Assembly: GCA_965205675.1 (NCBI GenBank) | Contig: OZ242186.1 | Location: 992,001 to 1,056,000, forward strand | DNA length: 64,000 nt | Direction of reading: 5' to 3' | Source: Nitrosopumilus sp. | Lineage (GTDB): Archaea; Thermoproteota; Nitrososphaeria; Nitrososphaerales; Nitrosopumilaceae | In this document: one piece after another, positions 2,475-39,233 of the stretch | How the letters are laid out: each line of letters starts with the position of its first letter | Numbering within the stretch: position 1 is the first letter of the stretch | Position numbers and translations under genes: made by a program | Notes under the pieces: model-generated | The model's database searches: none | The model's input: only the letters and a program-made list of their open reading frames with translations | What the model was told of the DNA's origin: nothing

Positions 2475-3885
2475 GTAACTGTCTAGAGTTTTGAAGTACT
2501 TTCTTTAATATTTTTTATCTATATCTTTTCTGATCAGTGACAAATTACAATATACAATTGTCAGTATATGATGAGCTGGAATATTATCGTAACAGATGTC
2601 ACTCGCTGGAGCAAGAAAACCGTCAGTTACGCAAAGATATTGAATCACTACACAGAGAAATTGCAGAACTAAAACAAACAGTGTCTACACTTGTTGCAAG
2701 AAATATCAAAGCAAAACCAAACAAGACTGAAACTGCAAAAAAGAAGAAAACATCAAGACATCCTAGAAAAAGCAGAAGCAGACGGGCACACATTGATGAT
2801 GCCATTACAGTTGACCAAAAAGAGTGCAACACATGTGGCAAATCACTCTCAGAACCAACTGATTCATACACCAGAATAGTAGAAGACATCATTCCTGCAA
2901 AAGCAGTTGTGACAAAATATACGATAGTTAGACGATACTGCACAAACTGCAAAAAACAAATCTCGGGTAACATTCACACTGTACTGTCAAATGAAAGGTT
3001 TGGAATTAGGCTCATGGTGCTAATCACATCACTAAAAACTATCGGATTATCGTATGGTAAAATATCTCATCTTTTGCAGATGCTCTTCTCACTGCACATT
3101 ACAGAATCTGCAATTAATCATGCAGTATCAATAGTATCAAAAGCATTTGGGAGCAGATATGATACAATGATTGTGGAGTTAAAAGAAGATCTAAACATAC
3201 ATGGTGATGAGACAAGTTGGAGGGTAGATGGCCAGAACCACTGGTTGTGGGCATTTGTGAGTAAATGGACTGTAATTTACGAGATTGACAAATTACGTTC
3301 AATGGATGTTCCCAAGAGAATTCTCAAGGGATATGATGGCAACATTACAAGTGATTCGTACCCTGCATGGAACCATGTTGGAAGCACTCACCAGAAATGT
3401 CACATCCATTATCTCAGAGAGGTTAATGATACCATTAATCACAAGAATCCCGGACCAGAATTTGCACCATTTGCCAAGAATCTCAAGAAAATAATTTATG
3501 ACTCTCATGGTGTGGCAAAAATAAAATCAGAATCAGAAAGAATCCATGCAAAAAAGAATCTTGAAAGGAGAATTAATCACATCATATCAAAAAAATACAC
3601 AGAGAAAAACTGTATCAGGTTTGTAAAAAGATTGAAACGTGAGAGAAAAATGCTTTTTACATTCCTAATTACTGGAACTGATTCACACAATAACACAGCA
3701 GAGAGGGCAATCAGACCAAATGTGATAATTCGTAAAATTACAAACGGTCATAGAACCATTCATGGTGCTGATTCTCATAAGATACTGATGAGTATAAAGG
3801 AGACATGCAGATTACGAGGATTAAACTTTCATGATTATTCTTTAGAATATCTTGGAGATTTTACTTCAAAACTCTAGACAGTTAC
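2475..3885 (+). mobile_element. IS66-family element copy 2, complete (1411 bp)
   Basis: 24-bp terminal IRs GTAACTGTCTAGAGTTTTGAAGTA; 8-bp target duplication GAATTTTT on both sides. Confidence 0.96.
2537..3877 (+). CDS. IS66-family transposase
   Basis: Coiled coil, Zn finger (CNTC...CTNC), DDE core. Confidence 0.93.
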   Translation: MTNYNIQLSVYDELEYYRNRCHSLEQENRQLRKDIESLHREIAELKQTVSTLVARNIKAKPNKTETAKKKKTSRHPRKSRSRRAHIDDAITVDQKECNTCGKSLSEPTDSYTRIVEDIIPAKAVVTKYTIVRRYCTNCKKQISGNIHTVLSNERFGIRLMVLITSLKTIGLSYGKISHLLQMLFSLHITESAINHAVSIVSKAFGSRYDTMIVELKEDLNIHGDETSWRVDGQNHWLWAFVSKWTVIYEIDKLRSMDVPKRILKGYDGNITSDSYPAWNHVGSTHQKCHIHYLREVNDTINHKNPGPEFAPFAKNLKKIIYDSHGVAKIKSESERIHAKKNLERRINHIISKKYTEKNCIRFVKRLKRERKMLFTFLITGTDSHNNTAERAIRPNVIIRKITNGHRTIHGADSHKILMSIKETCRLRGLNFHDYSLEYLGDFTSKL

Positions 3886-4261: not shown

Positions 4262-4441
4262 ATGCAAAAGTTAGATCCAATCCAGATATCCTGGATAATC
4301 AAGTCAAAAGAGGATGGTGCCAAGAACGCAGACGTAGCCTCATCCATGAAGATATCTGTTCGGTGGGTGCAGAAACTCTACTCACGGTATCGCCGTACTG
4401 GTGCAATTCCGATTCTAGGCAAGCCTGGAAGGCCAAAGGGA
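4262..4441 (+). pseudogene. IS481-like transposase N-terminal HTH fragment, interrupted by IS110
   Basis: ISWIIKSK...ISVRWVQKLYSRYRRTGAIP..GRPK resembles the fragment at 52217-52450. Confidence 0.6.
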
Positions 4442-4457
4442 ATAACTATAACCATAT

Positions 4458-5550
4458 GTGCCAAAATCAGCTAGGAAATTAGATGGTACTTGCATTCGTA
4501 TCAAGAAAGTAAGAAATGCAAACAAACACACTACCCTTCCTGAAAAAAAATATTTGATGTTTGTAGGATTGGATGTTCACAAGAACTCTGTACAGGTGGC
4601 AGCAGTAGATGAGATTGGCAAATTATTATTTAACAAAAAGATTTCCAGTGATTTTTCTGCTATTAGCAAAATTACATCCAAAATTCCAAAGAACGCAAAA
4701 TATGTTTTAGAGTCATCATCTGTCTGGTATGGCCTTTATAGACACATGACAGACAAATTACATCTTGATGTTATACTATCTAATCCATACAACACAAAGA
4801 TAATAGCATCATCACTCAAAAAGACTGATAAAATTGATGCGTACCATCTTGCAAATTTGCTACGAGGAGGGATACATTGCAGAATCATTTGTGCCAGATC
4901 ACACAATTGTGCAATACAGACAGCTTGTAAGACATCGACACAAGATTGTGCGCATCATTGTAAAGATGAAGAATTCCATACATGGTATTACACTACAGGA
5001 GGGAATCCATATCAAAGCAACACCATTTTCCTCAGAACACATACGTGCACTTGGAAAATTGGAGAGTTATAGAATAGATTCGTACCTACAAAGCATAAAA
5101 TTTCACAAAAAGGAGGTTGCAAAGATAGATTCCATGATACGTCGCATGGTAAATGATAATTCTGATGTGTGTATTTTGACATCAATACCTGGAGTTGGAC
5201 CATACACTGCATTGAGCATATTCTCAGAAATTGCAGAGATTAGTAGATTTTCAAATTCTCACAAGTTATGTGCATATGCAGGGATTGTTCCATCGGTGAG
5301 AAATTCTGCAGATACAATACATCACGGAAGAATTACAAAGAGAGGAAGCACCATGCTAAGATGGTTGCTAGTGGAGGCAATTCATGCACATGTTAGATAC
5401 GCACCAGATAGCGACATTACAAAATTTTATAATCGCATTAAGAAAAAGAGAGGGACCTCAAAGGCAGCAGTTGCTGCTGCATCAAAGTTATTGCGTGTCA
5501 TATATTGGATGCTAAAAGAGAGGAGAGAATTTGTTCAATGTCATCAATAA
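4458..5550 (+). pseudogene. IS110 recombinase A, frameshifted near 4868
   Basis: FVGLDVHK, LESS and KTDKIDA in the first ORF; SIPGVG, AYAGIVPSVRNS and ITKRG in the second. Confidence 0.88.
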
Positions 5551-5564
5551 TTTGTAAAACATTA

Positions 5565-5780
5565 CAGTTAGGAGTTTGGCCGCGTTTTCACATTGAGGAT
5601 GCATAATACCTCGAAACTATAACCGCGGTTTCACCTAATAAATGGATGAAGATGGTACTGGGGGAGAACCCCGAATGGATATGTGTCTGGTTTCATCTGT
5701 GATTGAAAGTATGAGTGTATTAGCGTAAGCTGTAATTAATATGGCAAAAATACCGACAATAGTTAAAAGGGATTCACATG
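5565..5780 (+). ncRNA. Putative bridge/seek RNA of IS110 element A
   Basis: Two stem-loops with internal loops; scaffold shared with 6895-7100 while loop sequences differ; ATGGAT matches the element's right end. Confidence 0.6.
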
Positions 5781-5785
5781 GATAT

Positions 5786-6899
5786 GTGAATAAGAAAGCA
5801 AGGAAATCAGATAGCATAAAAAATGAATCTAGTTCCAAGGTTCGTAAATACTCGGCTCCAAAAAAGATTACAAACAAACAGATTAGAAAAAATCCAAAGA
5901 AAGGCATGTTTGTGGGCATTGACCTGCACAAGAAGTTTCTTCAAGTAATAAATGGATGATGCAGGCAAAGTATTACAAAATGACAAAGTGGATAACACGC
6001 ATGAATCCATAAAAAAGCATTTTGCAAAAATACCAATTTCTGCAAATATTGTAATGGAATCCTCATCAGTCTGGTATGACACGTATCGATTTCTCACAGA
6101 TACTTTGGGATACAAAAACGTCACACTCTCAAACCCATATTTGACAAAGGCAATTGCTACATCAAAAAAGAAAACAGACAAGATTGATGCCAAGATATTG
6201 GCAGATCTTTTACGAGGAGGATACATTGCCACATGTTATGTTCCAGACAAAAAGATTGTACAACAAAGACAGCTTGTAAGATATAGGAAAAAACTAATCC
6301 AATGGAGAACATCTGTCAAGAATTCAGTTCATGGAATATTGTTACAAGAAGGAATCAAGATTCCAGGAGTTACATTCACTGAAACATACAACAGAAGACT
6401 CAAGGCACTAGGAGATTACAGAATAGACGGATTCTTGCAACAAATCAGCCACCTTAATTTACAGATTGCAGAGATTAATTCCAAAGTGTATGCTGCTGTA
6501 AAAGTTAATCCTGATGCAATTTTGATAAACTCGATTCCAAGAATTGGGCATTATTCTTCGCTTGTCATTGCATCAGAGATTGCAGATATTGAAAGATTCA
6601 ATGATTCCCACAAACTGTGTGCATATGCAGGAGTTGTACCATCAGTTAGAAACTCTGCAGATACAATACACCATGGCAGAATAACAAAAAGGGGAAGCAT
6701 GACATTGAGATGGGTTCTAACAGAATGCATACACACTCATGCAATTCATGCCAAAGACAGTGACATTACAAAATTTTACAATCGCATTAAAAAGAAAAGA
6801 GGATCATCCAAAGCTGCAGTAGCTGGTGCATCAAAGATCCTGAGGGTGATTTATTGGATGTTAAAGGAGAGGAGAGAATTTGTACAAAATTATAGTTAG
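5786..6899 (+). pseudogene. IS110 recombinase B, frameshifted near 5947
   Basis: MFVGIDLHKKFLQV is out of frame with MDDAGK; the fragment at 32701-32891 shows the intact reading QVAIMDDAG. Confidence 0.88.
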
Positions 6900-7100
6900 G
6901 ACTGCAAGTCGCGTTGTAATTATTGAGGGACAAGGCCTCGTCTAATAACTGCGAACAATCCTAACTAGGATGAAGATAGCATTGAGAGAATAGTCTCGTA
7001 TGGATACATGTCTGCCATCTTTTGATTGAAACCATTCTCTAGCGAAAGCCATGCCCTGATGTATGGAAAGAAAGGAAATGTATAAAAACAATTCACATGG
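6895..7100 (+). ncRNA. Putative bridge/seek RNA of IS110 element B
   Basis: GTTAGGA/TCCTAAC, GAGG/CCTC and GAGA/TCTC stems; loop TGTAATTAT is the reverse complement of the right junction ATAATTACA. Confidence 0.62.
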
Positions 7101-7124
7101 ATAATTACATAAAATTAGTTTGGG

Positions 7125-7148
7125 GGTAATAGGTTTACAATCACCTAA
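7125..7148 (-). repeat. Orphan IS-end-like repeat TTAGGTGATTGTAAACCTATTACC (second copy 47153-47176, + strand)
   Basis: 24-bp match between the two loci in opposite orientations. Confidence 0.6.
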
Positions 7149-7483
7149 AATAAAACTCTAAATTTTATGCGCCAGTTCTGTACAAAGTTACCATACAATA
7201 TGCTATTTCTTCAACAAAACGTTCATCTTCACTAACTGAAGCATATTTTGTAGCATTATTCCAAAAAGATGGTTTTTTAGTATGATTTTCTATGAATAGT
7301 TCGCTCAATACTTTTCATCATACTTTGATCGGATAATCATTCACCTCAATCAAAATTAACCTATTGCTAAAACAGATACACTTTACTTTGTTTTCAGCAT
7401 TGTTTATTTGAGATACAGGCAGAATGATTCACAAAGATGAAGGTTTGGATTATAATTTCCAGGACGCCCAAAAATTAGGATTA

Positions 7484-32546: not shown

Positions 32547-32700
32547 ATCCTTGCTTGCATCTTATCCTTAAAAAATGATTTGAGAACTATTTTGTATTAG
32601 GCACCAGTTTCCTGTTCATGGAATAATACAGAATATTCTGATCTAAAGCTTGGGTGATGAAATTAATTGGATCAACTAGTCATGTTGGGAAACACAGCAT

Positions 32701-32899
32701 AATATTTTGCCTGCATCATCCATTATTGCTACTTGAAGAAACTTCTTGTGCAGGTCAATACCCACAAACATGCCTTTCTTTGGTTTCTTCCTAATCTGTT
32801 TGTTTGTAATCTTTTTTGGAGAAGAGTATTTACGAACCTTGGAACTAGATTCATTTTTTATGCTATCTGATTTCCTTGCTTTCTTATTCACATATAGTT
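32701..32899 (-). mobile_element. Left-end fragment of IS110 element B type, inserted in an IS66 left end
   Basis: Near-identical to 5784-5970; junction GATCAGTG-AT-AACTATATGTGAAT. Confidence 0.85.
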
Positions 32900-32900
32900 A

Positions 32901-32966
32901 TCACTGATCAGAAAAGATATAGATAAAAAATATTAAAGAAAGTACTTCAAAACTCTAGACAGTTAC
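32901..32966 (-). mobile_element. IS66 left-end remnant
   Basis: Identical to 2475-2540 in reverse complement. Confidence 0.9.
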
Positions 32967-38850: not shown

Positions 38851-39233
38851 CAACGATCAAAATTACGAATCTATAAGGATCTGCGATCAACTCAAATTGA
38901 GCTATAATGCCTCAAATTTAACTAAAGAGTATATCAAATGACTGGTTTTACTGCACTAAGATCTAGAGTTCTTTTATTTCTGGTTCAAACCCCTCCCTTC
39001 ATGACCAAACAACCAAAGGTAAGATGCATTGTGGGGATTTTTCTTCAGGTTTAACTATCGGATCCTCAACAGGTGGTTTTCTAAGAGGTACTGTTGGTAG
39101 TTGTAATATCAGATTGCAGCAGATCTTTTACAATCTTTAATTTCACTATTACAATAAATTCTAAATTCATTTGTTCATTATGTATTTCTGCTTGAAATTA
39201 CAGTAGCAATCAAGTATTATTTTAGAATACAAT

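Follow-up and report, generated by a model that had tools for sequence, protein, structure and literature searches.

The window described here, a stretch of 64,000 nucleotides (nt) corresponding to positions 992001-1056000 of a single 2.01-Mb contig (33.7% G+C) from an archaeon of the genus Nitrosopumilus, contains a nest of mobile elements at 4262-7110: an IS630-like helix-turn-helix (HTH) reading frame is broken by an element of the IS110 family, which we call B, and B is itself broken near its left tip by a second element of that family, which we call A. The RNA-guided recombinases of the IS110 family are under development as programmable genome-writing tools. To our knowledge, their natural target choice is largely uncharted and their archaeal members are essentially undescribed. 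Because guides and flanking DNA covary across the whole family, and because of the counts of occupied sites, we consider it very likely that A is an IS1111-type element whose predicted two-loop RNA targets the left end of its own siblings. A first-pass annotation of the window had proposed a two-loop bridge or seek RNA in the 3' region of A, programmed for the end of a sibling IS110-family element, and the same two lines of evidence uphold that proposal.

An element inside the left end of its sibling

The left core copy of the B insertion, the dinucleotide TA, lies at 4443..4444 on the forward strand, to which all window features described below belong unless the minus strand is named, directly after the left target GGGAA within the HTH reading frame (4262-4474; HTH_23 with E 4.7e-05, but at 23.5 bits below the Pfam cutoff of 24.6 bits). 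The ACTA that follows (4445..4448) is a stub, namely the first 4 nt of the left end of B, separated from the remaining B by A. The left copy of the A core, again TA, occupies 4449..4450, and the crossover is ambiguous inside ATA (4448-4450), the nucleotides common to the target AACT-ATA-TGTG and the donor ATGG-ATA-ACCA. The body of A runs from ACCATATGTGCC to GATTCACATGGA at 4451..5782, which is the rotation-equivalent of the 4450-5783 given in the first-pass annotation, and its nine copies are 98.7-100% identical; written with its cores, the element reads TA + ACCATATGTGCC...CACATGGA + TA. The right end of A, GGGATTCACATGGA (5769..5782), consists of the sub-terminal repeat and the 3-nt extension GGA, and is followed by the right core copy TA (5783..5784), by the remainder of B from TGTGAATAAG to TTCACATGGA (5785..7101) and, at 7102..7110, by the right core copy of B (TA) and ATTACAT, the right half of the B target.

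Paralogous sites that lack B read CCAATAATTACA (CCAA-TA-ATTACA), and occupied sites read CCAATAACTAT-ATGTG...CATGGAT-AATTACA; B occupies (T)CCAA-TA-ATTACA(A), with TA on both sides. There are two empty paralogues for one site family and at least four for another, and one of them lies inside the window (TTTTTTCCAATAATTAC, 47192..47208, minus strand). Because these empty sites fix the boundary of B, ACTAT must be counted as part of its own left end: uninterrupted B left ends read TA-ACTATATGTGAAT, the whole element reads TA + ACTATATGTGAAT...TTCACATGGA + TA, and the true left end begins 6 nt to the left of its earlier placement. Since the left end extends that much further, A sits, on this reading of the junctions, 4 nt within it (TA-ACTA-TA-(A)-TA-TGTGAAT) and not at the junction of flank and end. 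The observation that removal of 4450-5783 gives ATAACTATATGTGAAT, identical to the string at 32886-32901 on the minus strand, is reproduced; the latter belongs to a second, truncated copy of B (32700..32899, minus strand, the first ~192 nt), whose uninterrupted left end AACTATATGTGAAT is an unoccupied A target. The notion of a target that is half flank and half element end, in turn, gives way to one composed of the core TA plus ACTA-TA-TGTGAAT, wholly within the true left end of the sibling. Two other placements were rejected, namely AATAACT-AT as the flank of B, on the strength of the empty paralogous sites, and an A starting at ATGTGCC with AACCAT as its target, which requires four extra bases (AACC) absent from the uninterrupted ends of B-type elements and of their D-type relatives.

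The recombinase gene of A (4557..5550) is split by one extra G near 4869 into the frames 4458-5072 (DEDD_Tnp_IS110) and 4834-5550 (Transposase_20), with Pfam matches to PF01548 in 4557-5072 (53.4 bits, N-terminal part) and to PF02371 in 4834-5547 (81.8 bits). The gene of B starts with GTG at 5786 and is likewise frameshifted in the window (5786-5959 + 5952-6899), and two intact copies of 371 amino acids exist elsewhere in the genome; PF01548 scores 88.9 bits in an intact copy of B and 69.5 bits in the window copy, and PF02371 scores 71.3 and 76.7 bits. A copy of A from another genome (L053, 94% identical) has an intact frame of 365 amino acids, and the recombinase of the D-type copies aligns without a break in tblastn. 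Relatives of the B recombinase were found at 77 loci, all from Nitrosopumilus, Nitrosopumilaceae or Cenarchaeum with the exception of L015 and L017, assigned to a 'bacterium', and L012, assigned to a Nitrososphaerota archaeon.

The translations contain GVVPSVRNSA or GIVPSVRNSA, and hence the Transposase_20 motif G--P----S(G/A), which is the published C-terminal motif of the IS1111 group (PMC11187229). The non-coding stretch 3' of the gene measures 232 nt in A (5551-5782) and 202 nt in B (6900-7101). The sub-terminal repeat of B is 8 base pairs (bp) long (ATGTGAAT/ATTCACAT), with extensions of 7 nt on the left (TAACTAT, one TA counted) and 3 nt on the right (GGA), and that of A is reduced to ATGTG/CACAT; the IS1111 layout, as described in PMC11187229, comprises sub-terminal inverted repeats, usually of 11-13 bp, and asymmetric extensions of 7 or 6 nt on the left and 3 nt on the right. 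Insertion is site- and orientation-specific and repeats the core alone, A always lying in the orientation of its host at AAC(T/C)A-TA-TGTGAA. By every sequence-level criterion, A and B are members of the IS1111 group of the IS110 family. Directly upstream of the nest, at 2537-3877, lies an intact-looking gene for a 446-amino-acid IS66-family transposase (DDE_Tnp_IS66, zf-IS66).

A predicted two-loop RNA and its guides

The 3' regions of the family were modelled with a covariance model, R1, that was built from six non-A family members of this genome and has four helices, arranged as two stem/internal-loop/stem-loop modules; A was left out and then aligned to R1, since the MAFFT alignments A1 and A2 misplace its loop 1. 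R1 delimits a predicted seek or bridge RNA with two internal-loop modules at 5575..5706 in A (63.1 bits, E 7e-10) and the predicted RNA of B at 6904-7029. It yields 74 matches in 78 sources (the window and the 77 related loci), and these start within ~150 nt of the recombinase end wherever the recombinase match is complete, with some of them owned by neighbouring element copies (L018:5029-5154, L032:1035-1162, L039/L043:2288-2420 and L042:4679-4771). Among the sampled genomes of the same archaeal family, 12 of 151 have R1 matches, from 7 of 27 genera. Over 56 distinct sequences, 97.7% of cells are paired, in an alignment whose fitting to the model favours structure; both sides have changed at 8 of the 19 pairs, with compensatory base-pair changes in three of the four helices, none of 500 shuffles reaches the observed value, and a partner slid by 1-3 columns pairs in 37-65%. 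Folding of A as a single sequence recovers both modules. An Rfam scan of 4300-7300 at E up to 10 returned no family match, with five chance matches to unrelated families far below their gathering scores.

The scaffold is nearly invariant, and the hypervariable positions lie in loop 1, where they make up the 5' strand and the opening 5-6 nt of the 3' strand. In its reverse complement, the 5' strand corresponds to the right flank of the element, in a majority register that starts at the A of the core TA. Full matches are given by ACATACAAAA against GGAT-ACATACAAAAATA (10/10) and by ACAATCATAA (10/10), and further guides with a flank match are ATGTGTTTAA, AGTTGTCTGA, ACGCATAAAA and TGATTCATAA. 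For 30 distinct 5'-strand guides, the longest run averages 5.6 nt against the guide's own right flank and 2.0 nt against the flanks of other families, 19 of the 30 having runs of at least 6 nt and the best reaching 10/10. The 3' strand always ends in TAAC (rarely TAAT or TAAA), which is the core TA plus the element's own first two left-end bases, and the bases ahead of it correspond to the left flank (e.g., TCTGG, GGAAG, GTTGA and ACGCA); for 20 distinct 3'-strand guides, the identity of the last five bases is 3.27 to their own left flank and 1.40 to those of other families. Because every 3' strand of loop 1 ends in TA-AC, the comparison favours TA as the core, AT being the less likely of the two; the archaeal attribution proposed in the first-pass annotation is well founded in view of the 77 related loci. 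The order of the strands, with the complement of the top strand preceding that of the bottom strand, is the one published for IS1111-type seekRNAs (PMC11187229).

B is an outlier in register. Its loop 1 (6914..6949), with the 5' strand UUGUAAUUAU (6914-6923; reverse complement AT-AATTACAA) and the 3' strand UCUAA-UA-AC (6941-6949), matches its own target (T)CCAA-TA-ATTACA(A) at 10 copies and at the empty sites, with a guide that covers two further core-side bases (AT). Loop 2, on the other hand, follows the ends of the element itself: AT(G/A)GATA tracks CACAT(G/A)GA of the right end in 48 of 49 distinct rows, and ATAG/ATGG tracks ACTAT/ACCAT of the left end in 38 of 43, the five exceptions being chimeras, and this covariation, whose states are essentially two and are distributed along two clades, carries little independent weight and lends modest support to a second RNA module that would read the joined ends of the element.

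In A, the 5' strand of loop 1, UUUUCACAU (5585..5593), is the complement of A-TGTGAA-x-A as read on the top strand; this makes up the target's right half and is part of the sub-terminal repeat of the sibling. The 3' strand, AAACUA-UA-AC (5614..5623), contains the left target AACTA, the core TA and A's own first 2 nt, in the register of the 20 guide variants. Read in the family register, loop 1 spells AACTA-TA-TGTGAA(T)A, which is the actual position of A and the place where the 7-nt left extension meets the sub-terminal repeat common to the siblings. In loop 2, the AUGGU of the 5' strand AAGAUGGUACU (5649..5659) is complementary to ACCAT, with which the left end of A begins, and the 3' strand (5673..5693) carries AUGGA-UA-UGUGU, that is, the right end of A, the core and the first nucleotides of the right target, as at the right junction. 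Two of the sequence matches reported earlier, namely TTTTCACAT at 5585-5593 as the complement of the right-side ATGTGAA and ATGGAT at 5675-5680, in the 3' strand of the second loop, as a match to the right end of A, are seen here as well. The AAACTAT at 5614-5620 is also where it was reported, but the AACT-AT that it matches is not a flank, given that the empty sites assign ACTAT to the left end of B. Similarly, the 2-nt offset of TTTTCACAT is real, but it is the majority register of the relatives, B being the outlier.

An A/T-rich box lies ~15-20 nt before every right end and faces outward (7070-7101 and 5755-5782 in the window, and all relatives in alignment A1), reading TATAAAAA in B, TTAAAAG in A and TTTTTAAAG in D. 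It could be a candidate archaeal TATA-like promoter that acts across the joined ends of a circle or into downstream DNA; downstream of the box of A lies the recombinase gene of the host.

Occupied sibling ends and how they may have arisen

Whole-genome BLAST found nine A copies with a right end, 10 full B copies, four D-type relatives (~68% identical) and many fragments. All nine A copies that keep their right end continue into ATGTGAATAA, a sibling left end (B-type in eight cases and D-type in one), the stub TAAC(T/C)A-TA stands ahead of every one of the genome's 16 A-type left ends, complete or fragmentary, and none lies at an unrelated target, a pattern that chance comes nowhere near explaining. 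The exact target AAC(T/C)ATATGTGAA has 10 unoccupied occurrences in the genome, every one of which is a sibling left end. Beyond this genome, the A-type loop 1 was found three times in genome G001 and once in G002, in each case followed by TA-TGTGAATAA, and it was not found in two other genomes searched; three of these four copies have a right end and loop 2 of the ATAGA type, so that loop 1 has been kept while loop 2 differs. Among the A-type variants, that of L071 (TATTCACAT) matches its flank at 9/9, and TTTTCATAT has a C-to-U change that would retain a G-U pair.

A has four types of host, namely B', a variant with an AGC insertion, an ACC-type B, and D. The A copy in the D host differs in only a few bases from those in B' hosts, and in two composites with identical 150-nt flanks the B parts differ at 2 positions and the A parts at 14. 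Given these four kinds of host, the near-identity of A in D, and the unequal divergence of A and B between identical flanks, the sequences clearly point to more than one insertion of A. The five B copies that carry A have six diagnostic bases and a 2-nt deletion in common, which are absent from the five B copies without A, and for that reason the A-B composite seems to move as a single unit. The composite retains the left target of B, its first six bases (ACTATA, with the CTAT read by loop 2 of B) and its right end; binding across both loops has been reported for excision substrates (PMC13626964).

A hybrid, H (genome 755684-754381), combines an A front with a B-type rear and RNA, and its flanks, TCTAA-TA and TA-ATTTCA, fit the B-type guides that it carries only when the stub is assigned to the element. 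As six similar loci with an A-type left end and front and a B-type RNA and right end occur in another Nitrosopumilus assembly (L041, L042, L047, L051, L069 and L073), such chimeras are recurrent. The frameshifted A in several types of host was either moved in trans by sibling recombinases, or its frameshift was spread by gene conversion. Because the copies share the frameshift and yet occupy four host types, we propose that the A of this genome probably moved in trans, and such use of its RNA is plausible because one seekRNA type occurs with transposases that are only 46% identical (PMC11187229).

Several further arrangements were observed among the composites and their relatives. Two other A-B composites (flanks at genome 444372 and 930145) have the left flank of the window composite, but their right flank, ATTACAGAGCAG, continues the IS630-like HTH frame; the right flank in the window belongs to another repeat family (TTTTTTCCAA-TA-ATTACATAAAATTAG), and because its two flanks derive from different families the window composite looks like a recombination product of two B copies. 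The A copy at genome 444222-441790 is split by an 1100-bp IS630-like element (443801-442702, L090; HTH_32/HTH_33 and DDE_3), whose insertion point is exactly the GGAGGG run that bears the common frameshift of A. Behind three A copies (genome 40581-39134, 63657-62073 and 571881-570374), the B-type element is cut down to 113, 245 or 175 nt. At 39134 the remnant directly abuts TTACATATTT, which forms the right half of a B target with empty paralogues at genome ~1789590 and ~497604, and on account of this direct join that B has lost everything from base ~114 to its right end through a single deletion that looks precise. Some A-type left ends (genome 63657 and 566149; L041 and L047) come after two stubs in a row (TA-ACTA-TA-ACCA-TA-), which means that either nesting went three elements deep or nested copies recombined with one another afterwards. 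Finally, in one D-type copy (genome 1410092-1402206) an insertion of ~6.5 kb separates the left end from the remainder.

In the explanation that we favour, A and B each carry a recombinase gene (DEDD/Transposase_20) and, after it, a predicted structured RNA of ~130 nt with two internal-loop modules. Loop 1 would choose the target, its 5' strand pairing with the top strand of the right half-site and its 3' strand carrying the sense of the left half-site, the core TA and the element's own first two left-end bases, while loop 2 would read the right and left ends of the element as the joined ends of a circular intermediate. Programmed in this way, A would integrate 4 nt within the left ends of B-type and D-type siblings and would spare the left target of the host, its first 6 nt (ACTATA) and its right end, so that the composite would stay recognisable and could be carried by the host's own RNA to the sites which that RNA targets. 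Sibling recombinases may drive the frameshifted A copies in trans; A's own left end has TGTGCC where the target has TGTGAA, which would protect A from self-insertion; and homologous recombination inside nested arrays would yield chimeras that join an A front to a B guide RNA. That all of this holds together, making A-type elements hyperparasites of their own family, with a target loop re-aimed at the sibling left end, a pair carried by the guide RNA of the host, a sibling recombinase that accepts the RNA of A, self-insertion spared, and chimeras formed by homologous recombination in nested arrays, is a tentative proposal, which we regard as possible and somewhat short of probable.

Several observations weigh against the targeting of siblings by the RNA of A. 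The +1 frameshift (the extra G near 4869) is common to all nine A copies examined in the genome, and since the recombinase is broken in every one of them, A cannot at present move itself here without help. The 5' strand of its loop 1 is 9 nt long, compared with 10 nt in most relatives, and has one target mismatch (A opposite T), and the 10 exact targets mentioned above are still unoccupied. Across the family, 11 of the 30 5'-strand guides match their present flank in runs of no more than 5 nt, including A60285 and v1720 (guide TAAATTCTAA, flanks TAATCATATG and TAAATCATGT), L069 and L041 (guide AGCATTTTAA), and also L085, L040 and L061, and on the left flank several matches are weak, among them those of GTCAA (0/5) and the D family (2.3/5). 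The two-state covariation of loop 2 and the pair counts taken from a fitted alignment belong here as well, as do the minimum-free-energy z-scores of the 3' regions, which are unremarkable (A 0.12 and B 0.35, no better than shuffles). From the sequence we infer that the RNA is transcribed, and likewise that it binds the recombinase and that a circular intermediate is formed; the first of these also counts on this side.

The frameshift in all nine copies could be taken to mean that A entered a B-type end once, long ago and by whatever mechanism, and has since spread passively with the composite, its loop-1 matches being relics or coincidental. The five full B copies adjoining A do form one lineage, as judged by the six shared bases and the same 2-nt deletion, and the two composites with identical 150-nt flanks fit such a history. 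A single event, however, does not agree with four host types, one of them, D, being only ~68% identical to B, nor with the nesting in two other genomes of A-type elements with an ATAGA-type right end and loop 2; the same-flank composites moreover differ at 14 positions in A and 2 in B, and the rule linking guide to flank holds over 30 and 20 guide variants. We accordingly regard this history as unlikely. A different route to the same position would be recombination through the donor arm, in which the circle of A meets sibling left ends via loop 2 alone. Such half-match recombination, with a substrate that matches half of the bridge RNA, has been reported for IS621 (bioRxiv 10.64898/2026.08.31.748434), the left end of A (ACCATATGTG) is homologous to that of the siblings (ACTATATGTG), and the UA-UGUGU of the loop 2 3' strand also matches the target. 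Donor-like pairing, however, puts the crossover at the sibling's own core and leaves no stub, whereas the actual crossover lies 6 nt further in, at the TA after AACTA, as the loop 1 3' strand predicts; the target is matched by both strands of loop 1, and siblings with the same kind of loop 2 but another loop 1 are not located in sibling ends. We therefore hold this route to be quite improbable.

The 3' region might also have no RNA function at all, serving as a protein-binding DNA site or a terminator, with flank matches that come from mis-assigned element ends. The transcript is, after all, deduced from sequence, no RNA run being among the 6 runs (4 studies) listed for this stretch, the folding energy is no better than that of shuffled sequence, and Rfam offers five sub-threshold chance matches and no family. 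This account is hard to reconcile with the compensatory changes in three of the four helices, with empty sites that fix the element ends independently of the loops, and with hypervariable strands that match outside sequence on both sides in the published strand order of IS1111 seekRNAs, and it seems to us very improbable indeed.

Relation to known RNA-guided elements

The family to which A belongs constitutes a natural library, in which ~30 reprogrammed guide variants sit on one small conserved RNA scaffold with a readable code, and if the RNA of A is indeed aimed at its siblings, one member has turned this programmability against their invariant end. This leads to the testable proposal that the guide RNA works with a sibling recombinase, that nested pairs move as units, and that chimeras shuffle recombinase and guide modules. 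The chimeras would then represent a natural way of shuffling such modules, and mobilisation in trans and hitch-hiking, if true, would provide a compact model of how RNA-guided mobile elements parasitise and compete with one another, and would explain part of the heavy insertion-sequence load in ammonia-oxidising archaea.

The closest comparison is with the IS1111-family seekRNA elements ISEc11, ISKpn4, ISPst6 and ISPa11 (Siddiquee et al. 2024, PMC11187229), as far as the portions of that source available to us describe them. A and B have in common with these a DEDD recombinase with a C-terminal Transposase_20 domain, a long non-coding stretch after the gene, sub-terminal inverted repeats extended by 7 and 3 nt, a complement of the top strand placed 5' of that of the bottom strand, with matches that meet or overlap at the insertion point, and natural reprogramming between relatives. 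They differ in their archaeal host (Nitrosopumilaceae), in a repeat of 8 bp as opposed to the usual 11-13 bp, in a serine motif of the form G--P----SA, in the targeting by A of its own family's left end, and in being known from sequence alone. With the bridge RNA of IS621 and the IS110 group (PMC11208160, PMC11208158 and PMC13626964, likewise seen in part), the predicted RNAs share a target loop and a donor loop with one guide for each DNA strand, a 2-nt core common to donor and target, and guide-adjacent bases that match the other partner in the manner of handshake guides; here the handshake-like bases would be those of the loop 1 3' strand, which ends with the element's own first 2 nt, and of the loop 2 3' strand of A and D, which runs into the right target. 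In IS621 the RNA is at the left end and the core is CT, whereas A and B have their RNA at the 3' end, a core of TA (or AT), a reversed order of guides, and handshake-like bases on the bottom-strand guides.

According to the accessible parts of the published accounts, IS4321 and IS5075 target the repeats of the Tn21 family and another IS1111 group targets attC; as with A, such elements are specific for an end or a recombination site of other mobile elements, and their copies accumulate inside mobile DNA for that reason. Their targets, however, belong to unrelated classes of element, whereas that of A is the homologous left end of a sibling, and the A-B nested pair keeps ends that would be readable by the host's own RNA. 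Among literature titles and abstracts, we found no IS110 or IS1111 element described as aimed at a sibling end or reported from Nitrosopumilus, although the supplementary tables of the 2024 papers (Durrant, Siddiquee) may list archaeal elements or targets in insertion-sequence ends. Programmable targets in the IS110 family and the targeting of the ends of other mobile elements are thus already known; new are a family from archaea whose natural library of guides can be read, the aiming of one of its members at the left end that the family itself conserves, and nested pairs and chimeras that seem to travel on the guide of the host.

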